Positions 26,290 through 45,388 of a stretch of 64,000 nucleotides of DNA are shown here, one piece after another. How positions within the stretch are numbered: the stretch's first letter is position 1; each line of letters starts with the position of its first letter. The notes beneath the pieces were generated by a model. The model did no database searches, had not been told where the DNA came from, and saw only the letters and a program-made list of their open reading frames with translations. Both the position numbers and the translations under genes were made by a program. Location of the stretch: positions 5,344,001 to 5,408,000 of the forward strand of contig OY771506.1 in assembly GCA_963674705.1 (NCBI GenBank). Reading direction: 5' to 3'. Source of the stretch: Phycisphaeraceae bacterium (GTDB lineage Bacteria > Planctomycetota > Phycisphaerae > Phycisphaerales > Phycisphaeraceae).

Positions 26290-29200
26290 TCAATCGCGGA
26301 TCATGTTTCGTGGGACGGATACGTCGATGCGTTTGATGTCGCCTGTCCGGTTAAAGACGTTCTGTGATAAAGCCACCGGTAACGTGTCGCCGGCGATCTG
26401 CTGGGTTTGGTTGTTGCTGGTTGTTACGCAGATCGTGGCTGGGCCTTCGGCCAGGTGATAGATCACGGGGACCTGGCATATAGTAAAACCGATTGAACCT
26501 TCGGGCAGTTCGATGGCTTCGTTGCGGTTGGCGATATCGTAATACCTGAAGACCGATTCGATCTTAAGAAACTCGTCGGATTTAATCAGTCTTGGTGCAA
26601 AACGTATCGTGCCTTGTTTGATGATCAGGCCGAGTTCAGCGTGTCGGGTGATAATTTCTTCTTTGACCTGGCCGGTCATGCCGGGCTGGCGTGCGCCGGA
26701 GTGGCCGGTCGTGTGCGAGTAGGGATCGGTGGGGAATGCACCGTATTCGACGGGGGTTTTGTTGAAACCGAGGCCGCCACGTACATGATCGTAAGCATCG
26801 GCGAGCTTGGATATCGTCTGATCGTCCGCCCCCTGCTCTACCGCACGGAGATAGCTTTCCTGCACGGCCAGTAACAGCTTGGCAACCATGTGCCAATAGA
26901 TGCAGCCTAATCCTTCATAGCCATACATCGTGCCCGAACGACCCGTGAAGTATTTGTGATGATACACATGTTCAAACAAGTCCTTGATAAGCTGGGTATC
27001 GCTTTGAACAAGGGGACGCAATGATTCAGAACGAGCAACATCATCAAGCACTTTTTTGAGTTGCTTGGCTGTATTGATGTTGGTGGCGAATCGGTATTTG
27101 CCTTCCGCATCTTTATAGATGATGCGTTCGTCCTGTTGAGATAGCATCTCACGTAACAACGAAGATGCCTGGACCTTATTCGCAGGTGCAACATTCTTTT
27201 CGAGGAAGTCGGGCAGGACGCGGTTGGGGTACAGCATGTAACTGGATTGATCATCCCGGTACATGGCGCTGCCAGCCAGCGCATCCAGCAGGTTGATCGC
27301 CTGCTCGGTGCTCAATACCCCGCTGCTGAGCGCCGCCACCTGGCCCTCGAGCATTTCATACATATGGCTTAATGAAACAGCGTCACCAGACTGAGACAAT
27401 TCCATCAGGTTGTACGCATGGTACATACCGTCTTCGCGTTGGTTCTGCTTGATGCTGTGGTCGATGTACTGGAGCGTCAGTTCAAATAGTTGGTTGATCT
27501 GCTCAAGCTTCACAGAAGTCTTACCCGACAGGCCGTTTTCGTATAACGCCCGGCGATATGCATCGAACGCTGTGCCCAATTCATCCAGGAGTTTCTTACG
27601 CTCGGTATCGTCGACGCGGTTGTTATCGAGCACGGCTTTGCTTGCATCCAGTGCTGTGAATATGCGCGAAAGCCAGTCCACCACCTCGCCGGTAATACCG
27701 ACCGTATCTATATCCAGTTCGGCGAAGAGGTTTCGGCAGAAAGCGATGTATCGTCTCAGGTAACAGAGCGTGACGACGGACAACCCGTTGCCGACAAGCG
27801 CGTTGTTGGCGTCGTTCCATTCCGGGCGTTGCGTGTTCAGCCAGAGGCCACCATCCAGCACCAGGTTGCTCAATTTTGCAAGCGCAGGCACCAGTAACTT
27901 CTCGATCAGGCTGACATGCATGACCTGGCCATTGGCGTCGACAAGCAATCTGCCATCCGCGCCGACTTTCTTCACACGGTCCGACACGCGCTTACTTTGA
28001 TCGAAGTCAAACACGATCGTATCGTTGGGGTCTTCGAGTATTTGATCGTATGGCTTGATGCGATACGGGACATCGGCGTAGCTGAAGACGTTCTGCGTAA
28101 GCATCTTGCCGAGTTGATCGGGATAGTAGCCGTGCAGTTGTTCGAGCAGGCGAAGCAGGTAGACGATCTGGTGGTCCCCCCAGTAACCGATGTTGCTCCA
28201 GGGGTTGTCCGGCTCAACAACTTCCCAATCGATGCCGTCGCTGGTAATGCGATACGGGTTGTAACCATCGGCGGTGGAGGCGTTGACAAACTTGGCGATG
28301 ATGCTGGGCAGGAAGCCGGGGAAGCTGAGGCAGAGTGCTTCCCAGTTCTGGAAGATATCGCGCCAGTTGCCCTGGTATGCAAGGACGCGGTTGCCTTGCT
28401 CATCTTTAAGACGGATATCAAATTGATTCCACGGCCGGCTCGGGTCGCCATGGCGTCGGCTGAAGTAAAGCGGCAGGTATTCGTAACACAAGCGATGCAG
28501 GTCCGCGTCATTTGCATCAGAAACCTTCTGAAGCAGATCGTGGACGGGCAAGGTCTTGGGCAAATCTGAGAGGAAAGCCTGGTGACGATCCGCAACAGGT
28601 TTGTTCCGCGCTTCGATAAATCTTGCCAGATCAATACTGGTTATGTTGTAGTTATTGTTGAAAACGCCACCTCGCATGTTGTTGAACAAAACATTTGCGA
28701 AGTGATGAGCGGGCATCGTCCGCACGCCTGTCACCTGTAATCCGTCGGCGCTGGCGACATTACGACGGAGATTCTGATCGCCCGCCAGGCAATCCAGTTC
28801 GACCGCCTCGATGATGTTCTTGTCCTCGCGTAAAGTACGGCGCAGGTGTACGGTTTTCTTCTGATTCTGTTTAACATCAGCAACGATATGCCAGTGATGC
28901 AACTGACCGGGCCCGACGCTCAGCGTGGATTTAAGCAGGAACGCCGCTTTGCGTCCCTTCAGAACCGGCTCAGATCGCAGCGTTTTCTTGTAGCGGAATG
29001 CATCGAGCTGCTCGGGGCGCAGGTAGAGGCTCGGGTCTATGAGTCCCCTGCTCCACACCGTCGTCGCATACATGGTTTCGCCCGGCTCGGGGCGGTCGGT
29101 GATCATGGAGCTGAGCATGTAGATGCCTAACCCGGTGTCTTCATCGATCACGGAATGCTTGTAGGCATCGGCAAGGCAGTGGCGGTGCTGATGCGTCGTG

Positions 29201-29775
29201 GCGGTGATCCCGTAAGCGAGGATGTTACGCAGCCCGTCCATGATGGTGACCTGGACTTCGGCGTCACCCGAATTAGCCAGCGTTGCGCGTCGGACAAAGC
29301 CAAACGCTTCGCTGAAACTCCAGCGGTACCTGAACGCCATATCCAGGTCCTGATTGATCTCTTCAAAGATGATCGAGTTTTCGAGTTCACTCTTGTAAAG
29401 ATGTCGACGGACACGGTAATGGTCCGTGGATGCCTGGGTGAATGGTTCCCAAAGCGTCTGCCCCACTTCCGGGTGGTCTACCCAAATGGCGGTGCAGGGG
29501 CCGGTGTGGGTATGAGATTGATAGAGCTTGTCTTCTGAATCGTATGGGAACAGGGCAATATCGGGGTTTGCTCTGCCGGCGGTTATACCACCGAGGCTCG
29601 AGATGTACATCCAGTGATCCGAATCGCTGACGATACTCATCAGGAACGGGTCGAGCTGGTCGTAATCCTGAATGGAGTTATACGATTCACCATCGATGCG
29701 TGTGAATCGGCCGACCGGGACGTGATCCTTTTCATCGTGCAGCACCGGGTATGTGATGTTCTTCTCGCTCAGCAT
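26290..29775 (-). CDS. GH149-like beta-1,3-glucan phosphorylase
   Basis: About 1160 aa, cytoplasmic; RRHGDPSRPWN, YQGNWRDIFQNWEAL, GYWGDHQ, NTQRPEWNDANNAL, YEGLGCIYWHM and FPTDPYSHT..QPGMTGQVKE motifs as recalled for GH149; GH16/GH17 context. Confidence 0.8.
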   Translation of the reverse strand: MLSEKNITYPVLHDEKDHVPVGRFTRIDGESYNSIQDYDQLDPFLMSIVSDSDHWMYISSLGGITAGRANPDIALFPYDSEDKLYQSHTHTGPCTAIWVDHPEVGQTLWEPFTQASTDHYRVRRHLYKSELENSIIFEEINQDLDMAFRYRWSFSEAFGFVRRATLANSGDAEVQVTIMDGLRNILAYGITATTHQHRHCLADAYKHSVIDEDTGLGIYMLSSMITDRPEPGETMYATTVWSRGLIDPSLYLRPEQLDAFRYKKTLRSEPVLKGRKAAFLLKSTLSVGPGQLHHWHIVADVKQNQKKTVHLRRTLREDKNIIEAVELDCLAGDQNLRRNVASADGLQVTGVRTMPAHHFANVLFNNMRGGVFNNNYNITSIDLARFIEARNKPVADRHQAFLSDLPKTLPVHDLLQKVSDANDADLHRLCYEYLPLYFSRRHGDPSRPWNQFDIRLKDEQGNRVLAYQGNWRDIFQNWEALCLSFPGFLPSIIAKFVNASTADGYNPYRITSDGIDWEVVEPDNPWSNIGYWGDHQIVYLLRLLEQLHGYYPDQLGKMLTQNVFSYADVPYRIKPYDQILEDPNDTIVFDFDQSKRVSDRVKKVGADGRLLVDANGQVMHVSLIEKLLVPALAKLSNLVLDGGLWLNTQRPEWNDANNALVGNGLSVVTLCYLRRYIAFCRNLFAELDIDTVGITGEVVDWLSRIFTALDASKAVLDNNRVDDTERKKLLDELGTAFDAYRRALYENGLSGKTSVKLEQINQLFELTLQYIDHSIKQNQREDGMYHAYNLMELSQSGDAVSLSHMYEMLEGQVAALSSGVLSTEQAINLLDALAGSAMYRDDQSSYMLYPNRVLPDFLEKNVAPANKVQASSLLREMLSQQDERIIYKDAEGKYRFATNINTAKQLKKVLDDVARSESLRPLVQSDTQLIKDLFEHVYHHKYFTGRSGTMYGYEGLGCIYWHMVAKLLLAVQESYLRAVEQGADDQTISKLADAYDHVRGGLGFNKTPVEYGAFPTDPYSHTTGHSGARQPGMTGQVKEEIITRHAELGLIIKQGTIRFAPRLIKSDEFLKIESVFRYYDIANRNEAIELPEGSIGFTICQVPVIYHLAEGPATICVTTSNNQTQQIAGDTLPVALSQNVFNRTGDIKRIDVSVPRNMIRD

Positions 29776-29835
29776 TGCTATATCCTTAACTAATTAAACT
29801 CGATGCAATCTATCGCCCTGATGTACTGTTGTTGA

Positions 29836-30711
29836 CTAACCCTTAACCGCTCCGGAGGTCAGGCCGGAGAGGAATTCCTTTTGCAGCAACAGGAACAGAA
29901 CCAGAACCGGCAGGATGGAAACAACCGTTCCTGCCATGATTAATCCATAATCGGTGCCGTACACGCCGCGCAATTGGTTGATGGCTACCGCCAGGGGCAT
30001 CTTCTCGGGGGATTGAAGCACTATCTGCGCCCCAATGAAGTTGTTCCATGCTCCCAGGAATGTCAACAGCAGGAAGGCGCCCATCATGGGGCGGATCAAC
30101 GGCAAGACGAACATGAAGAATATCTTGATCTCGCCACAGCCGTCGATACGTGCCGACTCGAGCATTTCATTGGGGACGGCGTTGACCGTCGCTTGCCTGA
30201 ACAGATACACCCCGAACGCGGGTGCGAGCCCGGGCAGGATCAGGCCTGAGTAACTATCCAGAAGGCCGAACCAGTACAGCAGCTGGTAATTCGGCGCCAA
30301 AAGCAACGCCCCGGGCACGACAAGTGCCGCCAGCACGAGCTTGGTGATACTTTCTCTTCCCTTGAAGTTGAACTTAGCCAGTGCATAACCACTCGTCGCT
30401 GCAAAGAGTGTCGCCAACACGCCGCTGACGGAAGCGAAAAACGTCGAGTTCAGGATCGGCCTGCCAAAACCCTCCTCGGCAAAGAGACGCTGGAAGTGGT
30501 CGAAGTTGAGTTTGTCCCAGGCGACGCCGAAGAGGCCGTCACCCGCGGGCAGGAACAGGTCGTCAAAGAAGATCTCGGATGGTTTAAGCGAAGCACACAG
30601 CAGGTAAGCGAACGGGATGAGTGTGATCAATGCGCAGAAAATCAACGCGGTATACAGCACGATGTATAGCAACACGGAATTGAACTTCTTGTTGTTGCCG
30701 GTTGACTCCAT
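29836..30711 (-). CDS. Carbohydrate ABC transporter permease (MalG-like)
   Basis: EAA loop ESARIDG; GYALAKFNFKGR; 6 TM helices. Confidence 0.92.
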   Translation of the reverse strand: MESTGNNKKFNSVLLYIVLYTALIFCALITLIPFAYLLCASLKPSEIFFDDLFLPAGDGLFGVAWDKLNFDHFQRLFAEEGFGRPILNSTFFASVSGVLATLFAATSGYALAKFNFKGRESITKLVLAALVVPGALLLAPNYQLLYWFGLLDSYSGLILPGLAPAFGVYLFRQATVNAVPNEMLESARIDGCGEIKIFFMFVLPLIRPMMGAFLLLTFLGAWNNFIGAQIVLQSPEKMPLAVAINQLRGVYGTDYGLIMAGTVVSILPVLVLFLLLQKEFLSGLTSGAVKG

Positions 30712-30718
30712 CACGCTC

Positions 30719-31594
30719 CTAGTTCTCACTCGCCTTTGCCACGCGGTGCTGGATCACAGCGAACACCATCAGCAGCACGGCCAGCATCCAGCCGATCGCA
30801 CTGGCCTTGCCCAGACGTCCGCTGATAAAACCGTTCTGATACAGATACATTACAACGGTCAGCCCCTGGTCGTCCGGGCCGCCGCTGTTATTCAGCAACA
30901 CGAAGGCGAGTTCAAAAAGCTGGAAACTGCCGATCAAAGAAAGCAACACGACAAACGACGCGACCGGCTTGATTGCGGGGATGGTTACATTCAAGAACCG
31001 GGGCCACGGTCCCGCACCATCGACCATCGCCGCCTCTGACAGGTCCTTGCTGACATTCTGCAGCGCGGCAAGGAAGTAGATCATGTTGAAGCCCGTGAAT
31101 TGCCACATCGCGGCGATAATCAGCGAGCCCATGACAAACCGCTCAAGCCAGGGGAATTCAGCCGGGTAGCCGGGGATAAGCTGATAGAAAGTGACGTTGA
31201 CCAAACCTTCCCGGTCGAACATCAGGCCGAACATGATCGCGATGAAGACCGTGCCGACTAATGAAGGCGAGAAGAAGATCATCCTGAAGAACACGCGGCC
31301 CCGCACCTTCTCATGGTTCAGCAGCATCGCCAATCCGAGCGATAACGGCAATTGAATGAAGACAGAACCCGCGGCGAAAACAAATGTGTTACGCACCGCT
31401 TTCCAGAACATGGGATCGGTCAGCAGGTATTTGAAGTTCTGCAGGCCTACGAAGGTGCTGGTCTTTGGGCCGAAGGTTTGCTGTACGGCAAGCACGACCG
31501 AATAAAGCATCGGGTACACCATGAACACCGCGAATATCACCACGAACGGTGATATCAGCACGTAAGGCGTCCATTTGGGATAACCCGAGTTCAT
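30719..31594 (-). CDS. Carbohydrate ABC transporter permease (MalF-like)
   Basis: FVGLQNF, EAAMVDGA and GKASAIG motifs. Confidence 0.92.
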   Translation of the reverse strand: MNSGYPKWTPYVLISPFVVIFAVFMVYPMLYSVVLAVQQTFGPKTSTFVGLQNFKYLLTDPMFWKAVRNTFVFAAGSVFIQLPLSLGLAMLLNHEKVRGRVFFRMIFFSPSLVGTVFIAIMFGLMFDREGLVNVTFYQLIPGYPAEFPWLERFVMGSLIIAAMWQFTGFNMIYFLAALQNVSKDLSEAAMVDGAGPWPRFLNVTIPAIKPVASFVVLLSLIGSFQLFELAFVLLNNSGGPDDQGLTVVMYLYQNGFISGRLGKASAIGWMLAVLLMVFAVIQHRVAKASEN

Positions 31595-32994
31595 TGCTGG
31601 CTCCTGAGGAACACGTTCTCCTCGACCTGTCGACGCACCAGTTTTTCGGCATCGGCGAGCAGTCGCCTGGCTTCGTCCATCAAATCTTCGCGGTCATAAA
31701 CCTGATTCTTCAAGGCGTATTCCTTGAGGAGGAACATGGCATTGGAAACCCGGTCCTTGGCGAAGGTATTGAACGGGGAGGATGTGCGGACCGGCACATC
31801 CGGCGCCAAGTTGATAAAGAGCCTGCCGGGCGCCTGCCCGCTGAAGTAATCAGACGGTTCATCGTAAAACGGCCTGTCCCAATAGGACTTGACCGGGGAG
31901 ATGATGTAATTGCTGCGGTACAGGCCCTCGGCCAACTCTTCGGACAGATACAAATGCTTGGCAAAGGTCCAGGCGTTTTCCTGATCTTCACTCATCTTCG
32001 CCATCCCAAGCATTGTCCCGCCCCAGACGCTCGTTCGTCGGCCGCCGGGCTCCCACGCGGGCAGCGGCATGAGCTTGATCTTGCCTTCTAATCCCGGCAT
32101 ATCCAATTGCCAGACGCCGCAAAGCCAGTCGGGCATCATCGCGACCAGCACCCGCCCGTCCAGGCGCATCTTGTTGCCTTGGGCGCTGAATTCGCCGGCA
32201 TCCACCGCGATACGGTTCGGGCCCACCATCCAACTGACCAGCGTTGCAATCACGTGCGCGTTGACTTCGGTATTGATGTGCATCTGCTCGTGTTCATCGA
32301 ACAGTGCACCGCCGGCCTGGAGGATGAGCGCTTCCAACTGATCGCGGAAGCTACCGGTCGCCCACATGCTGATGACGTAGTCGGGGATGGTGTCGCCGTT
32401 GCGATCACCGACTAATGGCAAGACGACTTGCGCGAACTCGTCCCAGGTCTGAACCGATTCGATGTCGATACCGGCTTCCTCGAAGACATCGGCGCGGTAG
32501 GCGAGCATGACCGGATGCACATCGTGCGGCAGGCCGAAGATCCGACCACGCGAAGTCCATGGGCCAAACGATGGCTCATTAATCTGCTCGTAAATACCTT
32601 CCTCGTGCAAGCGGTCGGTCAGGTCGACGAAACCGACATCTTCGATCGGGCCGGTGAAAACCTGTGGCACGAAGTTACGTTCGACTTCGATCAGGTCGGC
32701 TGCGGGTGTGTCAGTCAAGAACGAGGCGAGCATGCGCTGTTGCAGCGCTTCGTTACTGAGAAGCGACATGTTGACTTGCGGTTGCCTGTCGCGGTTCCAT
32801 TCTTCGACTTTGCCGACGTAGAGCGTCTCGTGGCTGTAGCTGAAGATCCAGAACTGGAGCCCCTCGCGATGCGGTATCGGCCAACACATCACCGCAATCG
32901 CGCTGCACACCGCCAGCGAGAGAATGATCCACCCCCCCGCCGAGAGGTATTCCAGGTAGTCCGGCAGCAATCTTTTAAGGAACTTGATAGACAC
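31591..32994 (-). CDS. Carbohydrate ABC transporter solute-binding protein
   Basis: N-terminal hydrophobic anchor; GRIFGLPHD, YRADVFEEAGI, TWDEF and WGGTMLG motifs; overlaps the permease gene. Confidence 0.88.
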   Translation of the reverse strand: MSIKFLKRLLPDYLEYLSAGGWIILSLAVCSAIAVMCWPIPHREGLQFWIFSYSHETLYVGKVEEWNRDRQPQVNMSLLSNEALQQRMLASFLTDTPAADLIEVERNFVPQVFTGPIEDVGFVDLTDRLHEEGIYEQINEPSFGPWTSRGRIFGLPHDVHPVMLAYRADVFEEAGIDIESVQTWDEFAQVVLPLVGDRNGDTIPDYVISMWATGSFRDQLEALILQAGGALFDEHEQMHINTEVNAHVIATLVSWMVGPNRIAVDAGEFSAQGNKMRLDGRVLVAMMPDWLCGVWQLDMPGLEGKIKLMPLPAWEPGGRRTSVWGGTMLGMAKMSEDQENAWTFAKHLYLSEELAEGLYRSNYIISPVKSYWDRPFYDEPSDYFSGQAPGRLFINLAPDVPVRTSSPFNTFAKDRVSNAMFLLKEYALKNQVYDREDLMDEARRLLADAEKLVRRQVEENVFLRSQQ

Positions 32995-33084
32995 GACTTA
33001 GTCCGCTCGCTAGAGATCCCGGCAAGCCGGGAACAACCTCCAAGTGCTGCAGGCAGGAGCCGAATCCCGCCACAGAATGACATT

Positions 33085-33355
33085 TTGATAAACAGTTACT
33101 TAATTCGATTCACATTGTGACGCCCGCCCCCCTATTTGTCAACATATTTCACATCAATATACCGGGGCCGAGCGGTCTGCCGGATTATTTTGTTAAATTA
33201 TTTATAATTAGTATTTTATATTATATTTTAAATTGCTCACATGCGACACAATTAGTGTGGTCAAGCCAGAATCACCGTAGAATGATCCTTCAAAGCACCC
33301 CAGACACTCTTACGCGAGATTGTTTATAACTATCTCTTGAAAACTGTTTCACAAA
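33085..33355. promoter_or_regulatory. AT-rich divergent promoter region with candidate LacI-type operators
   Basis: taaacagttac (33089-33099), tcacattgtga (33110-33120) and tgaaaactgtttca (33338-33351) between the ABC operon and LacI gene 1. Confidence 0.45.
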
Positions 33356-33370
33356 GTGTATCATTCGGAT

Positions 33371-34423
33371 ATGCCCAGTATCCGCACCGTCGCGAAGGAG
33401 GCCGGGGTCTCTATCGCCACCGTTTCACGTGTGTTGAATAACCACACATCGGTCGGCAGCGATATCCGTACGCGTGTACTGAGCACCGCCAACCGTCTGG
33501 GCTACGTCTCCTCGGTTGGCCGACGAAGCACGACCTACATCGGTTTTGTCTACACGGGCCCCGCCTCGTTTGATTGCCCGTACGACTCCATGGTCCTGGC
33601 CGGGATCAACCAGGCGATGGACGAGACCGATTTTGACCTGGTCATCCTGAATCCTCAACGGGACAAGAAGCCCACGGAAACCTATTCGCAGTACTTCATG
33701 CGTAAAGGCGTCCGCGGCGTGATCCTCCGCACGACCGCGGGCACCCGTGGGATTTGCCACACCATCGCCGAAGAAGGCTTTCCATCAATCGTGATAGGCA
33801 GTTGGACCGACCAGCCGGAGGTCAGCTTTGTATACGGCGACTCACACCAAACAAGCCGACAGGCAATCGAGCACCTGATATCACTCGGGCACAAACGTAT
33901 CGGCATCGCGATGGGGTTGGTCGAAGACACCGATCACATCGATCGACTAGCAGGCTACCGCGAGGCCTTGCAAGCGGCGGGTATCAAGCCGGACCCGGAG
34001 TTGTTGTATCGCGTCCCCCCCAAGAGGCCGGACGGCGCGCAACTGATCAAGCGGATATTGAGTAGCGCCGTTCCCCCGACCGCTTTATATGTCACCGATC
34101 CCTATATCGTCATCGGTGTGATCCACCAGTTGCAGCGTATGGGCATCAAGGTGCCGGAGGATATTTCGATCGTCGGGATGGATGACGGCGACAGTCCCAA
34201 GGACAGCTATCCGCAGATTACAGCCGTGTGCCAGGACGCGGTACAGATCGGCCACGAAGCATCGACCGCACTTAAACGCATCATCGACCGAGCCCCCGAG
34301 AAAGCAGCGCCGATACGCGTTGCGATTCCCACCTGGCTGGAAGTCCACGAAACTACGGGGCCGCCGCCTGCTAAACCGTTCCGGGTTTTGCCGAACGGCA
34401 CGCGTGTTGATCTAGCCGATTAG
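33371..34423 (+). CDS. LacI-family transcriptional regulator
   Basis: SIRTVAKEAGVSIATVSRVLN HTH; LGHKRI and VPEDISIVG motifs. Confidence 0.95.
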   Translation: MPSIRTVAKEAGVSIATVSRVLNNHTSVGSDIRTRVLSTANRLGYVSSVGRRSTTYIGFVYTGPASFDCPYDSMVLAGINQAMDETDFDLVILNPQRDKKPTETYSQYFMRKGVRGVILRTTAGTRGICHTIAEEGFPSIVIGSWTDQPEVSFVYGDSHQTSRQAIEHLISLGHKRIGIAMGLVEDTDHIDRLAGYREALQAAGIKPDPELLYRVPPKRPDGAQLIKRILSSAVPPTALYVTDPYIVIGVIHQLQRMGIKVPEDISIVGMDDGDSPKDSYPQITAVCQDAVQIGHEASTALKRIIDRAPEKAAPIRVAIPTWLEVHETTGPPPAKPFRVLPNGTRVDLAD

Positions 34424-34481
34424 GTATCATCAATCCGCTTCGCTATCGCACAGAGAGTTCCGCTAATAAATGGAGCCAGCC

Positions 34482-36139: not shown

Positions 36140-36205
36140 TTGACGTACCGGTTAGGTAGGGTTATCTTCTTGTATCGATGGAACGTGATGTAACTGATAC
36201 ATCAC
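36140..36205 (+). promoter_or_regulatory. Sigma70-like promoter followed by a palindromic operator
   Basis: TTGACG (36140) - 17 bp - TATCTT (36163); gtgatgta-actga-tacatcac at 36185-36205. Confidence 0.6.
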
Positions 36206-36227
36206 TTAACACACTTGGCAGGAACAC

Positions 36228-37232: not shown

Positions 37233-37310
37233 TTCGGTCATCAAGACCGACGTTGTTTTGTCGTTTAGAAACCGCCCATGTGGGCCTATTTGGAGGAAAA
37301 AGGAGAAACT

Positions 37311-38012: not shown

Positions 38013-38023
38013 CCTCCTTTTTT

Positions 38024-38053
38024 CCCGTCCACCGACCTAATCGTGGGTGGACG
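38024..38053 (+). terminator. Stem-loop after the PEP-CTERM gene
   Basis: ccgtccacc..ggtggacgg; no strong U-tract on the + strand. Confidence 0.35.
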
Positions 38054-38148
38054 GATTGAATAAGAAGTCGCACACAACGTGTGTGCCAACAACCGAATGG
38101 ATTTAGATAACGTGGCAGATGCCCAAATAACAACATTGGAGGAATGAA

Positions 38149-39618
38149 ATGAGCGGAAAGAGTCTCGTAACGATGTTGGCAGCCAGCGGGTTATTAATGG
38201 CCGGCCAACAAGCAGGCGCCGTCATCGTCGCCCAAAGCGACGACATGACCCCGGGTGGTAACAATCTGGGTGCGATGGAATGGTTCGAAGGCGGCGGTTC
38301 CTACGTGGGATACGGCACCGCTGAATCAGACGGCAACGGCTTCGCGATCATGACCAAGAATGGAACACAAAACCATTACACCGGCTTCTCGTATCACCTT
38401 GATGTCGCCGACGTGACCGCGGTTCAATCGCTTCAGGATGGCATGGTGATCCGCACCAGCGCCTGGGTCTTGTCCGATCCGGAAAACCCGTGGACAACAC
38501 AAGCAACTCAGGGCTGGAAGGTCGAGTTCTACAACGTCGCCTTGGGTGCATTCAACACCTTTGACATGACCAATGAAACCGAGAACGGCATGGGCTACGG
38601 CCTGATCGATGCCACCAGCACCGCGACCACCACGGGGTGGACACAGATGAGCGCCTCCTACACCATCACCGACGCTGAAGTCGACTTCTTCTCGCTTCAG
38701 GAAATCCGTCCGGTGTTCTTCACCGGTGACTGGTCAGGTTCCGATCCGGATGGCCGCTTGTTTGTCGATGGCTTCGCTGTAGAGGTCTTCCCGAACGTCG
38801 CCACCGCCAACGCAACGGCGCTTCCCAGCAACACCCCGGGCGGGTTCGATCTGGCTCCCCCGGTTGATCTGTCCGGTGACATTGACGGCGACGGATTCGT
38901 CGGCCTCTCAGACCTTGACATCGTCCTCAACCACTGGAACCAAGGCACCCCGCCGGTCGCACCCGGGACGGATGTCCTCAGCGACTTCAGCAACTTCACC
39001 GTAGCCGGCAGCTACGAAGGCTGGGGCACCTACACCTCCGGTGCAACCGACTTCCGTATCCAAGCCACCAGTTGGGGCGGCTGCTGGTACATCCTGCCGG
39101 AAGTTGTCGATGCAACCGGTCAATCCGCACTGGAAGTGCAGTTTGATGTCGGCGCTGCCAACGAAGCCGACCAACTCGGTATCGTCCTGTTCGACGGCGA
39201 TGGCACGGAATATCTCTACCGCCTCGACCTGACTGAAGGCGATGACCAAACCGTCCTGCTCGACCTGGTCCTGCCCTTCGCGGTGAATAATGAAGGCACG
39301 GTCCCCGGTCTGGACCTGTCCACCATCTCCTCGTTCCACCTTCAGGGAACGTTCGGCGATGGCAATCCTGGTCTGCCTTTGGACGTGACGCTTGACAACC
39401 TCGCCCTGACAGGCGGCGGTCTCGTGCTGATCGATGGCGACATCGCCGGCGCCGATGGTCTTGGCCCGGACGGCTTCGTCGGCCTGGCTGACCTGGACGT
39501 CGTGCTGAACACCTGGAACAACGGCACCCCGCCGGCCGATGGCGCTGCCGTGCCGGAACCGGCCAGCCTCGCGCTGCTGGGTCTGGGTGGCCTGACGATG
39601 CTGCGTCGTCGTGCGTAA
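38149..39618 (+). CDS. PEP-CTERM surface protein: CBM-like domain, dockerin-like repeat, second CBM-like domain, dockerin-like repeat
   Basis: Signal peptide; GDIDGDGFVGLSDLDIVLNHWN and DGFVGLADLDVVLNTWN repeats; VPEPASLALLGLGGLTMLRRRA tail. Confidence 0.85.
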   Translation: MSGKSLVTMLAASGLLMAGQQAGAVIVAQSDDMTPGGNNLGAMEWFEGGGSYVGYGTAESDGNGFAIMTKNGTQNHYTGFSYHLDVADVTAVQSLQDGMVIRTSAWVLSDPENPWTTQATQGWKVEFYNVALGAFNTFDMTNETENGMGYGLIDATSTATTTGWTQMSASYTITDAEVDFFSLQEIRPVFFTGDWSGSDPDGRLFVDGFAVEVFPNVATANATALPSNTPGGFDLAPPVDLSGDIDGDGFVGLSDLDIVLNHWNQGTPPVAPGTDVLSDFSNFTVAGSYEGWGTYTSGATDFRIQATSWGGCWYILPEVVDATGQSALEVQFDVGAANEADQLGIVLFDGDGTEYLYRLDLTEGDDQTVLLDLVLPFAVNNEGTVPGLDLSTISSFHLQGTFGDGNPGLPLDVTLDNLALTGGGLVLIDGDIAGADGLGPDGFVGLADLDVVLNTWNNGTPPADGAAVPEPASLALLGLGGLTMLRRRA

Positions 39619-39814
39619 GTGAATGATTGAACGTTTAGCTGATGGGCCGTGGGGTAACGGCCGCGAACCATCGAGCTTGTACTGACTGTTTCGTAACAGA
39701 CACTGAAAAAACCGGGCGTCCGCTTGACGGCGGACCCCCGGATTAAACAAGAAACGGCCCTGGGCGAGAGCGGGCCAACAAGAATCAACACAGCCCCTTG
39801 AAGGAGCGTCGATA

Positions 39815-40669
39815 ATGTCAACGAAACGAAACGGATTCACACTCATCGAACTGCTGGTGGTGATCTCCATCATCGCCCTGCTCGTGGGTATCCTCCTGCC
39901 GGCGCTTGGCGCCGCAAGGCGTTCAGCACTCGATATCAAGTGCAAGAACCAACTGCGCCAGTTCGGCATCGCGTTCATGGCCTACGCCACGGACAACCGC
40001 GACACGTTGCCGGCAAGCCTTGATGACAGGAACAACCAGTTCTACAGGACGTGGCTCATGGACGGCAGCCCCCTGTTCCAACGATTCATGAGGTATTGCC
40101 CCGATGACGGCTCAATATTCTCGTATGTTGGTGATTCCAGAGAACTCTACCGTTGTCCTGCATTAGAAGAAGGCGCGACGCAATCAAACGGTCGGCCATC
40201 CAACGATGGTAAGGGCAGCAACGGAAAGTTTGACTATTCAGTCTTTACTTCATGGAACAATGCTAAGGTGGATCAGTTACCCGCCCAGACAGTGATCGCC
40301 CGTAGCGGTGCGGATCCTTCAAATTATATTGATACCATCACACCCTTGTTAATCGAAGAAGACCCGGAATTCTCCTCGAACAACAATACCAACTTCGACT
40401 CACAGCACGCCTGGGACGACCGCGTCGGCCAATGGCACAACGGTGATAAGGGCAACTTCACCGCCTACGACGGCAGCACCGCTTCATTCGAGGGTGATGG
40501 CGAACAGGATAATCCTCAAGCACAGGAGTGGTATGCCGAAGCACCTAACGGTTTACGCCGCTCACTCGGCAACGGGCAATTCGGTTTAAATAGCAGTGGT
40601 AGCAAAGTCAGTATCCCCGGCGGCACGATTGAGTACGACTTCGGTGCATGGGGAAGCACAAAGAAGTAA
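39815..40669 (+). CDS. Prepilin-type N-terminal cleavage/methylation protein, DUF1559/H-X9-DG-like
   Basis: [37 protein letters not shown]-terminal [13 protein letters not shown]. Confidence 0.9.
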
Positions 40670-40751
40670 CGCGTGAATATTAGCCGACCTGCGGGACAGA
40701 TAGCGCAACAGACCTATTTTTATACTTACTACTTGGAATCAGGAGTTTTCC

Positions 40752-42287
40752 ATGACCACGTTTAAATCAACAAAAGGGCTGATCGCGGCAATTGCCTGCA
40801 CGGCCAGCGCATGTATGGCTGGTTCAGCGTTTGGCCAAGCCACCGATCTGCCCGGTTGGGACCTGGTCTGGAACGACGAATTCGATGGCACCTCGCTGAA
40901 TACCAGCGACTGGGAAGCCCTCAACCGCCAGGACAGCTTCAACAACGAGAAGCAGTACTACCTGGACGACCAGGTTTCGGTCGCAAACGGTTACATGACC
41001 ATTACCGCGACGAATCAGCCGATCGCCAACAAGCAGTATCGCTCGGGTCTGATCCGCACGTGGGATGAGTACACCTACGGCCGGTGGGAGATCCGCGCCG
41101 ACTTGCCGACTACCCAAGGCATGTGGCCCGCGATCTGGCTGCTACCTCGATACGAGGACTGGCCCAGCGGTGGCGAGATCGACATCATGGAGAATAAAGG
41201 CAGCCAACCTTATGCCACCAGCAGTGCTTTCCACTACGGTGAAAACTGGGAAAACCATCAATACGTCTGGAACGAATACAGCGCGACCGAAAACGGCGTG
41301 CCGGTCAACTTTCATAACAGCTTCCATACGTATGCGGTCGAATGGGAAGAGAACGTGATGCGTTTCTTCGTTGATGACAATCTGCACTTCGTCGTCAACA
41401 GTTCACGTGTCCCGGTGCCCGATGGGCCGATGAGTCTGATCATTAACCTCGCCATCGGCGGGGACTTCGGCGGTGACCCGGACGGCACGACCGTGTGGCC
41501 TCAGACGATGGAAGTGGATTACGTCCGTTATTGGCAGAAAGCCACTGCAATTCAAGGCGATATCACCGGCGATGGTTTTGTCGGGCTTGACGATCTGGAC
41601 ATCGTGCTCAACGAGTGGAACCAGGGTACGCCCCCCGCCGCGACGACCAGCGTCGTGCTGAATGACTTCAACAACGTCGGTCTGACCGGCGTCTATGAAA
41701 ACTGGAGCAGCGGAACCATTACCTATGGCGCAAACGACATGCGCGTACAGGCCGGGGACTTCGGCGGGGGCTGGATGAACCTCGGCGCACCGATCGACGC
41801 GACGGGACAGACAACGCTCGAGGTCGCGCTCGATGTCAACCCGGGCAATGTCGCGGACGAATTCAATATCGTGCTGATCGATGCCGACGGCACGGAGCGC
41901 GTGTATCACTTCACCGATCTGGTGGTCGGTGACGATCAGATCCTGTCTCTGGACCTCGACGACTGGAGCCAGGACAACGCCACCGGCTCGATTGCAGGCC
42001 TGGATATCTCCAGCCTGGTTACGTTCCACCTGCAAGGCACGTTCAGCAACGGCAATCCGGGCCTGTGGATGGACCTGACGTTTGACAATATCGCTCTGAC
42101 AGGCGGGACAACCTTCATCCTCGAAGGCGATATCAATGAAGACGGCTATGTCGGCCTGGATGACTTGGACATCATCCTGAACAACTGGAACGCAGGCACA
42201 CCGCCATCCGGCAGCGCTATCCCGGAACCCGGCACACTTGCGATGATCGGGCTCGGGAGCCTGACGATGATGCGTCGTCGCGCGTAG
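40752..42287 (+). CDS. GH16 (laminarinase-type) fused to a split dockerin-like/CBM-like module and PEP-CTERM
   Basis: WDLVWNDEFDG, GMWPAIW, catalytic EIDIME, FHTYAVEW and VDYVR motifs; GDITGDGFVG and GDINEDGYVG repeats; IPEP tail. Confidence 0.92.
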   Translation: MTTFKSTKGLIAAIACTASACMAGSAFGQATDLPGWDLVWNDEFDGTSLNTSDWEALNRQDSFNNEKQYYLDDQVSVANGYMTITATNQPIANKQYRSGLIRTWDEYTYGRWEIRADLPTTQGMWPAIWLLPRYEDWPSGGEIDIMENKGSQPYATSSAFHYGENWENHQYVWNEYSATENGVPVNFHNSFHTYAVEWEENVMRFFVDDNLHFVVNSSRVPVPDGPMSLIINLAIGGDFGGDPDGTTVWPQTMEVDYVRYWQKATAIQGDITGDGFVGLDDLDIVLNEWNQGTPPAATTSVVLNDFNNVGLTGVYENWSSGTITYGANDMRVQAGDFGGGWMNLGAPIDATGQTTLEVALDVNPGNVADEFNIVLIDADGTERVYHFTDLVVGDDQILSLDLDDWSQDNATGSIAGLDISSLVTFHLQGTFSNGNPGLWMDLTFDNIALTGGTTFILEGDINEDGYVGLDDLDIILNNWNAGTPPSGSAIPEPGTLAMIGLGSLTMMRRRA

Positions 42288-42397
42288 TACATAGTGATGA
42301 GTGATGCCTGAAAATCAAACCGGGGTGAGTCGACAGAACCGGGCGACGGTGTGGTAGTGATATTGGGCGGTCAACCAATCCATATCGGGACGGAATC

Positions 42398-43198
42398 ATG
42401 TCTGACAAACGCAAAGGTTTCACACTGATCGAACTGCTGGTTGTTATTTCCATCATCGCGCTGTTGGTAGGCATCCTGCTGCCGGCACTAAGCGCCGCAA
42501 GACGCACCGCACGATCGATGATCTGCCAGAACAACCTCAGGCAGATCGGCATCGGTATCTGGGCGTACAGCTACGAGAACCAGGACCTGTTCCCACCGGC
42601 CTATATGGATGGGGCTCAGGGCTCTGACTGGGCGGTGATGATCAATGCGTATCTTGCTCAATCAGGTAAAGACACGTATCAGGATGCCGAGTATCAGCAT
42701 CAGACGAAGGTGCTTACCTGCCCGGAAGCATTGATCGACGGCGGCCGATTGCATTACGGTGCGAACCTGTTGTTTATGCCGGTCTTCCCGTGGTCGACCG
42801 CTGCGGGTTTGAAAGTCTATAACACGAATGACCTGGTGCGTACGACCGAGACAATGATGATCGGTGATGCATCACAGATGCTGACGGCCAGCAACTATGG
42901 CGACAGCTACTCGGGGTTGGACCGGCTTGACGCGTTCGGCGCCAACGAGAAGTCTGAATATTACTCAGCCGACTATCAATACAACGATCGCGTGATCAAA
43001 GACGGGCCACGTTTCAGCACCGACCCTCGCTACACGGGCCCGCGCGCCGGCCAGGGTGACCTGCGGTATCGCCACGCCGGCAGTGACGGATCGGTGAATC
43101 TGCTGTATACCGACGGTCACTCGGGCAATGCCAATCGTGGTGAAATACTTAAACGTAATGTCCGTGCAGATCCACCCTCCGATCTTGCCGACCGATAG
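42398..43198 (+). CDS. Prepilin-type N-terminal cleavage/methylation protein, DUF1559/H-X9-DG-like
   Basis: [49 protein letters not shown]. Confidence 0.9.
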
Positions 43199-43212
43199 AG
43201 GTGAAAGCAGAC

Positions 43213-44028
43213 ATGTCTAAAGTAAAGCGAAACACCACGGCCGCGCTTGTGACCTGTGCTGTGGCGGGTTGTATCAGCCCTTGCCATGCCGTTACGCCGG
43301 ATGAGTTGCAACGCCCGGGCTGGACGCTGACGTTCCATGATGAATTCGATGGATCGGCTGTCGATACTGAGAAGTGGGAAGTGCTGACGCGCAAGAACAG
43401 TCACAACGAAGAGAAGCAGTATTATCTTCCTGAACAGGCGGCGATAGTCGATGGCGTGTTACGCATCACTGCTACGAACGAGCCATACGAAGGCAAAGAC
43501 TATCGCTCGGCCCGGCTCGAAAGCTGGTTCACCCAGAAGTACGGCCGATTTGAAGTGCGTGCAAAGATACCCACAACCAAAGGCATCTGGCCGGCGATCT
43601 GGCTGTTGCCGCGTGAGGGCCATTGGCCTCACAACGGCGAGATCGACATCATGGAGCACGGCGGCAGCCGATCGCATGATGTCAGTTGCGCGATTCACTT
43701 TGCAGACGAAAACCGCCAGCACAAACACGTCTGGGCGGTGCATCAAGCTGAGGACAAGAACGGCAAACCCATCGAGTGGGCCAAAGACTTCCATATCTAC
43801 GCGGCGGAGTGGTCGCCGAAAGACGTCGCTTTCTTTGTAGATGACGTCGAATACTACCGCGTCGGTTACGACAAGATACCCGAACTAAAAACGCCGATGT
43901 GTGTCATACTCAATACCGCGGTTGGCGGCTGGTTCGACGGTGACCCGGATGACAACACCGTGTTCCCACAATTCTTCGACATTGACTATGTGCGTGTGTA
44001 TCAGAAGGATGAATGGGACGATGAATAG
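43213..44028 (+). CDS. Secreted/periplasmic GH16 beta-1,3-glucanase
   Basis: Signal peptide; WTLTFHDEFDG, GIWPAIW, EIDIME and IDYVRVY motifs. Confidence 0.92.
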   Translation: MSKVKRNTTAALVTCAVAGCISPCHAVTPDELQRPGWTLTFHDEFDGSAVDTEKWEVLTRKNSHNEEKQYYLPEQAAIVDGVLRITATNEPYEGKDYRSARLESWFTQKYGRFEVRAKIPTTKGIWPAIWLLPREGHWPHNGEIDIMEHGGSRSHDVSCAIHFADENRQHKHVWAVHQAEDKNGKPIEWAKDFHIYAAEWSPKDVAFFVDDVEYYRVGYDKIPELKTPMCVILNTAVGGWFDGDPDDNTVFPQFFDIDYVRVYQKDEWDDE

Positions 44029-44120
44029 GCAAACGCCATAGATTAATCACGTTCTCGTTTGGACCGGGGAACGATACCACTGAAGACAAGAGCCAATCAC
44101 AGTCTAAATTTATAATGGTT

Positions 44121-44192
44121 GCCACACTTTGACCCGAAGTGCAAAGTGTGTTCTGTCAACGCACACTTGCTGCTGCGCAGTCAAAGTGTGGC
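44121..44192. repeat. 13-bp inverted repeat between convergent genes (REP-like or bidirectional terminator)
   Basis: gccacactttgac (44121) ... gtcaaagtgtggc (44180). Confidence 0.6.
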
Positions 44193-44221
44193 GCCCGACT
44201 GATGCGGATAGTGGCTAAGCA

Positions 44222-45283
44222 CTACTCTTCGGCAGCGATGGCTTTCTTCGGTGTCCGGTCGGTGTTGTAAAGCCCCCAGTGTTTTTCTGCGCCGTCCGGG
44301 TGATCGCCCCCCTTCCACTTCTCATCGAACGCTTCAAAGTAGAAGTACGGGATCTTCATGTGTCGTGTCCACTCGACAAATTCTGAATAGAAAACTTCTT
44401 GGCTATCTTCGCCGGCGTTGCCTTTGATGTACTTGCCATCATCCCCGTCTTTGTGGATCTGAGTCGCCCAGCCGGCTTCACCGATGACAAACTTGTGATT
44501 GGGATGAGCAAGCACGTTGACTTCGTATTGCTCGCGCGTCCAGTCCATGGCCTGTTCAAGCTGTTGGCCGTTCCACATCGCGTAGATATGCGTCACGATA
44601 AAATCCACTTCATCGGCAAGCGCTTTGCTCTTAGGCTGCGCCCAATAGCTGAAGACATCGGCCGTGCTGACCGGTACTGTTGTAGCCGCTCGTACCCGAC
44701 GGATGTAATCCACCAGCACCGGCGTACGGACTTTGTGGAACGACCAGGACACATGCGTCTCATTGCCCACGGTCACCGCTGCCACCACATCCGGATATTC
44801 ATTTGCCAAAAGGATCGCGGCTGCGACCTCCGCACGATTCGCCGCCTTCGTCTCGGGGAAACTTTCAACAATCTCCCCGGCTTCGTTCACTCTCGCTTCG
44901 GTTGCGATCCATGCACCCACAACCACTTTCATATCGATGTCGTGCTCGCGGATCAGTTGCAGCACATCTTCGGTAACGCCCTGCGAGCCGTACATACGCA
45001 GCATCTGCCAATGCTTGCTGAGGATCAGCAGGTCTTCGAGCAGTTGTTCACGGGTCGGTGATGCACCGTCGGGAGATTGCCCGTCACGGTGCGGGCCGTA
45101 GCAGATGCCGTTACCGAGCCATCGCCCGTCTTCCATCACAATGAAAGGCCGTTTCACAAAAGGTGCTTCACGTTCGCACGCTGCATCCCAATCGGGCTCC
45201 ATACTCTTTGCATGCAGCGTAGCGCCACAACCAGCAAACGGTGCAACCAATACACAAGCCAGAATCATCAGGATTGTCTTCAT
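44222..45283 (-). CDS. GH17 beta-1,3-glucanase/glucanosyltransferase, probable lipoprotein
   Basis: Start at MKTIL with FAGC lipobox; ICYGPHRDGQSP, LRMYG, VGNE, IGEAGW and FEAFDEKWK..EKHWG motifs. Confidence 0.88.
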   Translation of the reverse strand: MKTILMILACVLVAPFAGCGATLHAKSMEPDWDAACEREAPFVKRPFIVMEDGRWLGNGICYGPHRDGQSPDGASPTREQLLEDLLILSKHWQMLRMYGSQGVTEDVLQLIREHDIDMKVVVGAWIATEARVNEAGEIVESFPETKAANRAEVAAAILLANEYPDVVAAVTVGNETHVSWSFHKVRTPVLVDYIRRVRAATTVPVSTADVFSYWAQPKSKALADEVDFIVTHIYAMWNGQQLEQAMDWTREQYEVNVLAHPNHKFVIGEAGWATQIHKDGDDGKYIKGNAGEDSQEVFYSEFVEWTRHMKIPYFYFEAFDEKWKGGDHPDGAEKHWGLYNTDRTPKKAIAAEE

Positions 45284-45369
45284 GAGTTGAAACCTCATTC
45301 GATCGGGTCGTTGATCATGCCATGTTAAAATAAACCACAATGCGTAACGCCTGAGTATACCGCGCCCGG

Positions 45370-45388
45370 AAAGTAACATTGTTACTTT
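45370..45388. promoter_or_regulatory. Perfect 19-bp palindrome upstream of GH17, candidate operator
   Basis: aaagtaaca-t-tgttacttt. Confidence 0.55.

Follow-up and report, generated by a model that had tools for sequence, protein, structure and literature searches.

A laminarin locus of a Phycisphaeraceae bacterium that combines LacI regulators, glucanases, PEP-CTERM proteins, and DUF1559 pilin-like proteins without SusC/SusD

How polymers pass through the outer membrane of planctomycetes without SusC/SusD is a standing question. Laminarin, the storage sugar of algae, accounts for one of the ocean's largest carbon fluxes, planctomycetes are major particle-attached glycan degraders, and few protein families of the phylum are larger than DUF1559. 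A locus that bears on the question lies in a Phycisphaeraceae bacterium (GenBank assembly GCA_963674705.1, contig OY771506.1), whose genome is a single contig of 5.54 Mb and is 96.6% complete. The stretch analysed here, hereafter the window, comprises 64,000 nucleotides (G000:C1:5344001-5408000), and the locus occupies positions 26290-47672 of it. We read it as a LacI-regulated laminarin cluster without SusC/SusD, in which three DUF1559 prepilin-like proteins (pilA, pilB, and pilC), together with adjacent surface proteins that bear a carbohydrate-binding module (CBM), may well be the part that captures glucan and takes it across the outer membrane.

Genes were assigned by Pfam, NCBIfam, and PDB sequence searches, and 44 open reading frames (ORFs) of the window were scanned. 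A preliminary description, made from the DNA letters, had ended the block at 45283; every gene class that it named was recovered at or near the place where it had been put, and the locus runs past that end. It had counted two pilin-like genes, and both are present (39815-40669 and 42398-43198); the count is one short, as a third lies at 46812-47672, just beyond its range. The features are as follows (GH, glycoside hydrolase family; HMM, hidden Markov model; ABC, ATP-binding cassette).

26290-29775, minus strand: GH149 beta-1,3-glucan (oligosaccharide) phosphorylase (NF058639 equivalog, 1593.5 bits, cutoff 1150, profile positions 7-1133 of 1134)
29836-30729 and 30719-31594, minus strand: two ABC sugar permeases (BPD_transp_1, 3.8e-14 and 1.8e-14)
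31591-32994, minus strand: ABC solute-binding protein with an N-terminal hydrophobic anchor (SBP_bac_1, 3.7e-17)
33356-34423, plus strand: LacI1 regulator (LacI helix-turn-helix, 2.3e-13; Peripla_BP_3, 4.8e-30)
34470-35813, plus strand: GH158 endo-beta-1,3-glucanase with signal peptide and lipobox-like LLAC (PDB 9oro, E = 6.9e-64; 6pal, E = 7.2e-35)
36228-37232, plus strand: LacI2 regulator, found at 72-99% identity in the relatives L001, L003, L006, and L025, where it heads PEP/pilin/GH16 genes
37278-38012, plus strand: PEP1, small secreted PEP-CTERM protein (30.8 bits, cutoff 20.7) with signal peptide
38149-39618, plus strand: PEP2, secreted, noncatalytic protein with a PEP-CTERM tail (PF07589 above cutoff)
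39815-40669, plus strand: pilA, DUF1559 prepilin-like protein with G/FTLIE and H-X10-DG (N_methyl, 7.5e-8; TIGR02532; own-family HMM, 182 bits)
40752-42287, plus strand: GH16 laminarinase with a PEP-CTERM tail, EIDIME at residue 142, fused to a PEP2-type dockerin-like/CBM-fold/PEP-CTERM module
42398-43198, plus strand: pilB, DUF1559 prepilin-like protein with H-X12-DG (PF07596, 40.4 bits, cutoff 23.3)
43201-44028, plus strand: GH16b laminarinase, EIDIME at residue 147 (Pfam, 1.6e-22), with signal peptide and lipobox-like VAGC
44222-45442, minus strand: GH17 beta-1,3-glucanase or transglycosylase with signal peptide, the true start probably at about 45283-45298
45469-46500, minus strand: aldo/keto reductase (PF00248, 4.9e-72), beside GH17 also in L001
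46812-47672, plus strand: pilC, third DUF1559 prepilin-like protein, with H-X11-DG (PF07596, 28.6 bits), the true start probably at about 46930

Is this a polysaccharide utilization locus (PUL)? By a definition that looks for carbohydrate-active enzymes (CAZymes) for one glycan plus a regulator, it is one, with GH149, GH158, two GH16 genes, GH17, and two LacI genes within 19 kb. It falls outside the strict Bacteroidota definition of adjacent susC-like and susD-like genes. The locus is more than a chance assembly: within 19 kb it has five CAZyme genes specific for beta-1,3-glucan, among them the only GH149 of the genome. The GH149 protein matches PDB 6hq6 over residues 26-1157 (E = 0, 1119 bits); it lacks a signal peptide and is predicted to be cytoplasmic. 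Both GH16 proteins match PF00722 (74.5 and 80.3 bits), and the top PDB matches of GH16b are laminarinases (3iln, 1.4e-38; 3azx; 4bow). GH17 is marginal by PF00332 (28.9 bits against a cutoff of 28.2, C-terminal part only) and matches 6fcg (7.5e-24) and, over residues 127-405, 4wtp (2e-11).

The gene that had been described as a clan GH-A hydrolase is indeed present, and similarity to 9oro and 6pal identifies it as GH158. In the window, it is broken over three frames (34470-34805, 34804-35493, and 35499-35813), with +1 near 34802 and -1 near 35496, and the pieces are collinear with residues 26-85, 85-315, and 341-423 of 9oro (and with 6pal as well). Read-derived contigs of two sequencing runs, X1 and X2, have one base fewer at 34802, and X2 also has an extra C after 35496 (depth of about 5 to 7); these runs contain the stretch at 98-99% of the sampled words and may be the genome's own source sample. 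Because the read-derived contigs carry corrected bases and the gene is in one frame in three relatives (L001, L003, and L025), the frameshifts are probably consensus errors of the assembly and the gene is probably intact in the organism. Given the corrected bases, a decayed pseudogene is less likely. Indel errors seem to be present in the consensus of this genome, and other genes of the assembly that look like pseudogenes may also be artefacts.

No SusC/SusD-type system accompanies these enzymes. As the preliminary description had stated, a TonB receptor or SusD is absent here: none of the 44 ORFs scanned in the window matches TonB_dep_Rec, Plug, or SusD. SusD (PF07980) has no match in the whole genome. 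A TonB receptor encoded elsewhere might have accounted for uptake; no glycan-type one was found in the genome, in which the Plug domain has two matches, both outside the window and beside signalling genes. The first Plug receptor gene is followed by genes for a YfiR-like protein and a histidine kinase, with a GGDEF-EAL protein adjoining, and the second lies among genes for CsgG-like, M48 peptidase, and CHASE2-cyclase proteins. From these neighbours, neither looks like a glycan importer.

Three proteins of the locus were confirmed as PEP-CTERM proteins, the third being one of the two GH16 enzymes. PF07589 gives 30.8, 23.1, and 23.8 bits for them (cutoff, 20.7), and the genome has three Exosortase_EpsH genes. 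PEP2 consists of an N-terminal beta-rich domain, a dockerin-like loop, a CBM-fold jelly roll (residues 270-425), a second dockerin-like loop, and PEP-CTERM. Residues 241-489 of PEP2 are 56% identical to residues 267-511 of the long GH16, so that the two have in common a module of dockerin-like loop, beta domain, dockerin-like loop, and PEP-CTERM. The repeats are called dockerin-like and nothing stronger because the dockerin models stay below their cutoffs. An AlphaFold2 model of PEP2 has predicted local distance difference test (pLDDT) values of 86-93 at about residues 275-420 and is poor elsewhere (mean pLDDT, 63.5). Its residues 270-429 superpose on the CBM11 structure 1v0a with a Z score of 15.5 (root-mean-square deviation, 3.2; 147 residues aligned), and the beta domain also matches CBM30 (Z = 13.0) and the laminarin-binding CBM 8qx6 (Z = 11.6). 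Foldseek matches of the model include tandem CBM22 and a Bacteroides surface glycan-binding protein, SGBP-B; the ESM Atlas yielded only leads below 0.9 (planctomycete PEP-CTERM/dockerin clusters and some CBM_4_9). By its model, the beta domain common to PEP2 and GH16 is a CBM jelly roll, PEP2 is a predicted surface glucan binder, and the long GH16 is a predicted surface-anchored endoglucanase, which agrees with the surface-anchored binders postulated earlier.

Signal peptides are found on GH158, GH16b, and GH17, the first two with lipobox-like cysteines, and PEP1, PEP2, and the long GH16 combine a signal peptide with PEP-CTERM. This predicted targeting (GH149 without a signal peptide, three secreted glucanases, and surface-type PEP proteins) fits the route through the cell compartments that had been drawn beforehand. 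From enzyme families and targeting signals, we consider a pathway of surface binding and endo-cleavage, envelope trimming, ABC import, and cytoplasmic phosphorolysis very probable. (i) The PEP-CTERM GH16 with its CBM-fold module and the noncatalytic PEP2 and PEP1 would bind and nick laminarin at the surface. (ii) Trimming of the chains, in the periplasm or at the envelope, would fall to the signal-peptide- or lipoprotein-type GH16b, GH158, and GH17. (iii) The ABC system would import the oligomers, and (iv) cytoplasmic GH149 would phosphorolyse them to glucose-1-phosphate.

What, then, are the pilin-like proteins? PF07963 and TIGR02532 are above cutoff for pilA, pilB, and pilC, indicating a prepilin signal followed by a hydrophobic helix; with PF07596, pilA stays at 20.6 bits, below the cutoff of 23.3. 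The H-X(n)-DG spacers are 10, 12, and 11 in pilA, pilB, and pilC, respectively, and the family mode is 9-10. Over 75 aligned members (paralogs of the genome and pilins of relatives), the N-terminal segment is nearly invariant and the heads are divergent; outside the pilB clade, pilin heads are about 22-40% identical to that of pilB. The AlphaFold2 model of pilB (pLDDT, 87.5; predicted template modelling score, 0.85) shows a 50-residue helix and a beta-sheet head, and a structure search with it has nothing but type IV pilins and type II pseudopilins in its first 24 rows. A fold like that of solute-binding proteins (the Pfam name of DUF1559 is SBP_bac_10) was considered and rejected, as the model resembles a pilin and the matches found include no periplasmic binding protein. 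A complex prediction of the pilB head (residues 30-266) with the GH16 module (residues 262-488) scored 0.00 in a run that had no controls and has no bearing either way. Assembly machinery is encoded in the genome, all of it outside the window: two prepilin peptidases (Peptidase_A24), five secretins, and 18 frames that score above cutoff as T2SSE-family ATPases, 8 of which are of PilT-like size, a likeness judged by size only.

Does the pilin linkage hold in other genomes? The closest public relative, a Phycisphaeraceae metagenome-assembled chromosome (L001), has its genes in the same order, with proteins that are 69-100% identical throughout the locus, and it alone has an ortholog of pilC. Orthologs of PEP1 occur in L001, L003, L020, and L023. 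We used the PEP-CTERM GH16 as query for a survey that gave 79 loci, composed of the 38 best (36 planctomycete by label, 1 "uncultured bacterium," and 1 Nannocystaceae) and 41 of other phyla. The order LacI2/(PEP1)/PEP2/pilin/GH16/GH16/GH17 is kept, whole or in part and as far as the contigs reach, in eight of them (L001, L002, L003, L006, L017, L025, L032, and L034), at a GH16 identity of about 58-63% (88% in L001). A DUF1559 ORF occurs anywhere in the locus in 21 of the 38 best loci and in 0 of the 41 from other phyla. On the same strand and within 1.6 kb of the GH16 domain it occurs in 18/38 versus 0/41, and within 300 bp in 12/38 versus 0/41. Seven of the 18 near loci come from Pirellulales or from planctomycetes with no class given, and a separate clade unites their pilins with further Pirellulales pilins. 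In our window, the pilB stop lies 3 bp ahead of the GH16b start, and the pilB type is the pilin kept beside GH16 in Phycisphaeraceae.

The same association appears around other enzymes. A search of 201 sampled Phycisphaerae genomes gave GH149 in 9, and eight loci from other genomes were fetched, one of them just 6.6 kb long. In three of these (L170, L173, and L175), DUF1559, PEP-CTERM, and GH158 genes stand beside GH149 in rearranged order; of the other five, one has PEP-CTERM genes only and the rest have neither. Each of the genome's three GH158 paralogs has a pilin gene no more than four genes away, and one of the paralogs directly adjoins its pilin gene. The two paralogs outside the window (G000:C1:4649038-4654059 and 4703000-4705163) are each beside a DUF1559 pilin, one locus with PEP-CTERM and LacI genes and the other with XylR/AraC-type regulators. 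In a tree of 107 pilins (79 HMM matches of at least 100 bits from this genome and 28 from the surveyed loci), pilB groups with eight GH16-adjacent pilins of other Phycisphaerales, with support of 98 in the Shimodaira-Hasegawa-like approximate likelihood ratio test (SH-aLRT), and pilA groups with four pilins (L001, L021, L032, and L035; SH-aLRT, 100). Neither clade contains any other paralog of this genome.

Because the order of the GH16 loci recurs and the GH149 and GH158 loci are rearranged with their pilins, the sequences indicate that the pilin-glucanase association is kept both by descent and through rearrangement. The preliminary description would have given up its reading had the linkage been confined to this genome; since the pilin/PEP-CTERM linkage is conserved, that objection falls. 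Could the adjacency nonetheless be meaningless, DUF1559 being a large mobile paralog family that has piled up in CAZyme/PEP-CTERM islands? The family has about 76 paralogs here, 14 of the 76 adjoin another pilin, transposases stand beside some pilins, dockerin-like/PEP-CTERM genes cluster with themselves, and the glycoside hydrolase enrichment reported below is not significant. This explanation is improbable in view of several facts: the GH16 linkage persists where the GH16 proteins are about 58-63% identical and extends to a second class (Pirellulales); it reappears, rearranged, beside GH149 and GH158 in other families; orthologous clades track the locus; pilB and GH16b are 3 bp apart; and pilins are enriched 6.4-fold among the neighbours of dockerin-like/PEP-CTERM genes. 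On account of the linkage that withstands rearrangement, the 3-bp gap to GH16b, and the locus-specific clades, we consider that the pilins probably belong to the locus functionally.

Which genes accompany pilins in the genome as a whole? The gene set was a crude longest-ORF call of 4558 genes. A six-frame search with PF07596 gave only 17 matches and under-counts the family, and pilins were therefore counted with an HMM made from the paralogs of this genome (97 matches at E <= 1e-5; 79 at >=100 bits, 76 of these in the gene set). Searches with PEP2 found 184 genes with dockerin-like/PEP-CTERM tails, and a loose regular expression gave 316 PEP-CTERM candidates among the 4558 genes. An immediate dockerin-like/PEP-CTERM neighbour is present for 31 of 76 pilins versus 317 of 4482 other genes (Fisher 5e-16), and one within two genes for 44 of 76 versus 13% (Fisher 1e-19). 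Conversely, pilins make up 31 of the 291 non-PEP neighbours of dockerin-like/PEP-CTERM genes and 1.67% of all genes, which is the 6.4-fold enrichment. Of 48 adjacent PEP-CTERM pairs by either definition, 43 are on the same strand, and the gaps of 32 same-strand dockerin-like pairs are 4-403 bp.

For regulators, we compared 40 of 59 pilin regions (the window's own region left out) with 40 random size-matched control anchors. A sugar-type regulator (LacI, ROK, or GntR-/AraC-type with Peripla_BP_3) lies within two genes in 10 of 40 pilin regions and 2 of 40 control regions (p = 0.025), and both regulator-bearing control regions themselves adjoin a pilin. LacI genes are within 5 kb of a pilin in 9 of 19 cases, against 12% expected (binomial 1.7e-4). 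What stands firm across the genome is the pairing of DUF1559 genes with dockerin-like/PEP-CTERM genes and their position beside sugar sensors; the link to hydrolases in general is weaker. Separately, type I phosphodiesterase-TPR fusions adjoin DUF1559 pilins in three loci of this genome (L091, L094, and L147).

An Rfam search of the 40 sampled pilin regions revealed one riboswitch, a cobalamin riboswitch (RF00174, 59.9 bits; gathering threshold, 31.5), directly upstream of the following operon.

G000:C1:1884655-1887834 (L093:1664-4843), plus strand: cobalamin-riboswitch operon encoding a dockerin-like-tailed protein, a DUF4465 protein, and a DUF1559 pilin

It encodes exported proteins only, with no TonB receptor among them. 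To judge from its genes, the operon fits a candidate system for B12 capture; export of a surface binder fits too, because a B12 binder must reach the surface.

In which direction would such pilins work? One possible answer, which we consider rather doubtful, is that a type II secretion-like system uses the DUF1559 proteins as its cargo-specific pseudopilins or as anchors; the glucan pathway would be the same, and protein would be moved outward for export or display instead of glucan inward. As a reading of the gene arrangement, export or display of the neighbouring dockerin-like/PEP-CTERM proteins would be as economical as capture and import. The N termini of pilA and pilB are closest to the major pseudopilin GspG (TIGR01710, 29.6-29.7 bits, below cutoff), and the tightest partner, next to 31 of 76 pilins and at operon-like gaps, is a dockerin-like/PEP-CTERM gene. 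In the accessible portions of two reports, type II export of alginases is proposed for a cluster that bears a pseudopilin (PMC13274419), and type II secretion proteins are up on fucoidan in one planctomycete strain (PMC11685898). However, known type II systems use one pseudopilin set for many cargoes, and one pilin per cargo would be without precedent; moreover, pilB is translationally coupled to GH16b, which has neither a dockerin-like nor a PEP-CTERM tail. Export also leaves the passage of glucan across the outer membrane unexplained in a genome with just two TonB-type receptors, and the eight PilT-sized ATPase frames, a hint from size only, point to retraction.

Another function, attachment or aggregation (on algal particles, in flocs, or in a matrix), might be coregulated with glycan sensing and involve no capture, trimming, or import of glucan by the pilin/PEP-CTERM genes. 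PEP-CTERM/exosortase systems have been tied to flocculation, PEP1 has a weak floc_PepA match (26.6 bits; cutoff, 80), and CAZymes are lacking at many pilin loci; the Akkermansiaceae MUL2 locus is read as an attachment device in the available part of its description (PMC13174399). We give this explanation little credence, since the PEP-CTERM proteins here include a GH16 enzyme and carry CBM-fold modules, pilins and glucanases share operons, the GH16-linked pilins fall into specific orthologous clades, and the paralog under the B12 riboswitch answers to a nutrient signal and not to an adhesion signal.

Our preference, a tentative one, is for import by retractile pili carrying glucan that is bound to the CBM partners; export or display of the partner proteins comes only a little behind it. 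Import is favoured because no alternative outer-membrane route for glycans was found, ATPases of PilT size are present, and a paralog is under a B12 switch. Judging from gene neighbourhood, a prepilin peptidase would process pilA, pilB, and pilC, and the three would be assembled into a common type IV pilus or type II secretion-like machine, to which they would link the binders and enzymes with dockerin-like tails. Bound glucan would then be drawn in by retraction, in the manner of a "fishing rod," in place of the missing TonB-dependent transporter.

Several findings weigh against our reading of the locus. The strongest genomic partner of the pilins is a dockerin-like/PEP-CTERM gene and no transporter, which fits export or display equally. 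Dockerin-like/PEP-CTERM genes also cluster with each other (57 of 184), so that part of the pilin-PEP adjacency may reflect island structure. Glycoside hydrolases or lyases within two genes are weakly enriched (11/40 versus 5/40 regions, p = 0.16), as are hydrolases and regulators taken together (15/40 versus 7/40, p = 0.078), and many pilin loci have no visible glycan genes; many have neighbours that are thioredoxin-like, phosphodiesterase-TPR, or of no recognized kind. Among the GH16 loci, 20 of 38 lack a pilin close by, as do 5 of the 8 GH149 loci from other genomes; some of these loci are on short contigs. The ABC importer is linked to GH149 in this genome and L001 only. As to the proteins, the structural matches of pilB are weak (best Z, 5.2), and a Foldseek search of it against PDB gave nothing at E <= 0.001; the dockerin-like repeats score 21.6 and 17.7 bits with PF00404 (cutoff, 22.9) and 21.8 with NF041540 (cutoff, 29). 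Finally, the pilin tree comes from a quick maximum-likelihood search with SH-aLRT as its only measure of support.

If the pairing proved general, DUF1559 pseudopilins and dockerin-like/PEP-CTERM binders would provide TonB-independent nutrient import across the planctomycetal outer membrane, with a pair for each nutrient (laminarin and vitamin B12 being the cases at hand) served by common retractile machines. This extension is speculative, and we rate it as rather unlikely. If true, such a pilin-binder route would be the functional counterpart of SusC/SusD and BtuB in a phylum almost without them, and it would explain both the expansion of DUF1559 and the near absence of TonB-dependent receptors.

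How might the locus be controlled? In addition to the two LacI genes, an 11-mer is common to two promoter regions.

33320-33330, plus strand: TTGTTTATAAC, copy 1, in the divergent promoter region of the solute-binding protein gene and LacI1, within a 21-bp near-palindrome
46513-46523, plus strand: TTGTTTATAAC, copy 2, in the divergent promoter region of the aldo/keto reductase gene and pilC

The genome of 5.54 Mb contains five copies of TTGTTTATAAC, two of them in the locus and one inside the pilin gene (G000:C1:4649383) of a second LacI/PEP/GH158 locus. A search for LacI-type palindromes gave one 16-mer (35986) and several unrelated hairpins, and only TTGTTTATAAC is common to promoter regions. 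We treat it as a candidate shared operator and as a lead only; within the window alone the pair is not significant, as 8 of 100 shuffles give at least two matches, which also counts against our reading of the locus. A scan of 29700-47800 yielded 9 promoter-like and 17 terminator-like sites, with no excess over shuffles. The locus contains no ABC ATPase gene. The closest paralog of its ABC importer (binding protein, 610 bits) is encoded at G000:C1:5485210-5491214, about 1.6 kb from another DUF1559 pilin.

The flanks of the locus are unrelated to it.

20937-24983, immediately left of the locus: KAP-family P-loop NTPase of 1348 residues, in a stretch of low GC content (0.455-0.51)
47719-50099, convergent with pilC: anti-sigma-like protein (weak NF052375 match) and extracytoplasmic function (ECF) sigma factor

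The KAP-family NTPase may be a defence or mobile gene; it does not belong to the glucan locus. The anti-sigma-like gene is kept beside pilC in L001, and housekeeping genes follow on the right beyond the anti-sigma-like and ECF sigma genes.

The locus thus ties given DUF1559 genes to a defined substrate, to CBM-fold partners, and to LacI control, and the link recurs across families. What is new here is the conserved LacI/PEP-CTERM/pilin/GH16/GH17 order in Phycisphaeraceae and a PUL-like CAZyme cluster with an accessory module of pilin and PEP-CTERM binder. Also new are the GH16-linked pilin clades, with pilins beside GH16 in Pirellulales and beside GH149/GH158 in other Phycisphaerae families, as well as the genome-wide pairing of pilins with dockerin-like/PEP-CTERM genes, the CBM-fold module common to PEP2 and GH16, and a pilin in a cobalamin-riboswitch operon. 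The reading as an analogue of a PUL, put forward in the preliminary description, stands insofar as this is a beta-1,3-glucan cluster without SusC/SusD; its novelty is smaller than was implied, as both the "fishing-rod" idea and a pseudopilin in an alginate cluster are already in print. So far as its text is accessible, the papers found by a full-text search for DUF1559 assign it no function, and in the literature apart from subscription journals and supplements, we found none that ties it to a laminarin locus or to PEP-CTERM partners. The available main text of a paper on laminarin-degrading bacteria of the Planctomycetes-Verrucomicrobia-Chlamydiae (PVC) group does not contain "pili," PEP-CTERM, GH149, or TonB (PMC13526803).

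Compared with the laminarin PULs of Bacteroidota, in which SusC/SusD accompanies GH16, GH17, GH158, or GH30 and surface glycan-binding proteins, the locus has the same enzymes (GH16 laminarinase, GH17, and GH158) and the same logic of surface endo-cleavage with noncatalytic binders, periplasmic trimming, and substrate-responsive regulation, and the PEP2 model matches SGBP-B of B. thetaiotaomicron and CBM folds. It differs in having no SusC/SusD, in anchoring its surface proteins by PEP-CTERM/exosortase and not by lipidation alone, and in its ABC uptake at the inner membrane, cytoplasmic GH149, LacI regulation, and three interleaved prepilin-type genes. With type II pseudopilus proteins (GspG/PulG) and type IV pilins, the DUF1559 proteins have in common the class III signal peptide G/FTLIE, E5, P22, and a modelled helix with a beta-sheet head. 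Unlike these, they have a head of about 200 residues with H-X(9-12)-DG, score below cutoff with the GspG/GspH models, and are encoded by dozens of solo genes away from assembly operons.

Another related case is Verruconatronum alginivorum (Verrucomicrobiota), whose alginate-induced cluster, according to the accessible text, includes a pulG-like pseudopilin that has 67 homologues in that genome; in proteomics, a pseudopilin is overproduced on alginate, and the authors suggest enzyme export (PMC13274419). Both are PVC bacteria with a large pseudopilin family (67 there and about 76 here), one member of which, or more, lies in a polysaccharide cluster. They differ in phylum, substrate, and enzymes, the portion of that report at hand mentions no PEP-CTERM partner, and the two are likened by description and not by pseudopilin sequence. 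In Akkermansia, according to the part of the report available, pilin-like and pilus-assembly proteins of MUL1/MUL2 are needed for glycan foraging and intracellular accumulation (PMC13174399). MUL2 is different in being a single conserved locus (Amuc_1099-1102) of an attachment- or secretion-like kind and not a set of paralogs spread among CAZymes, and it too is likened by description and not by DUF1559 homology. In planctomycetes, fucoidan is internalised and type II secretion is upregulated, and pili are not mentioned in the accessible text (PMC11685898). A further precedent is the "fishing-rod" hypothesis, as a review gives it in its available part, that planctomycetal pilin-like proteins bind whole polysaccharides and pull them into the periplasm (Boedeker et al. 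2017, via PMC12078418). That hypothesis likewise invokes dedicated pilin-like proteins in bacteria without SusC/SusD; in the form available to us, it names no gene family or locus, whereas here specific DUF1559 genes are tied to a substrate locus and to CBM partners, which turns a vague idea into specific genes.

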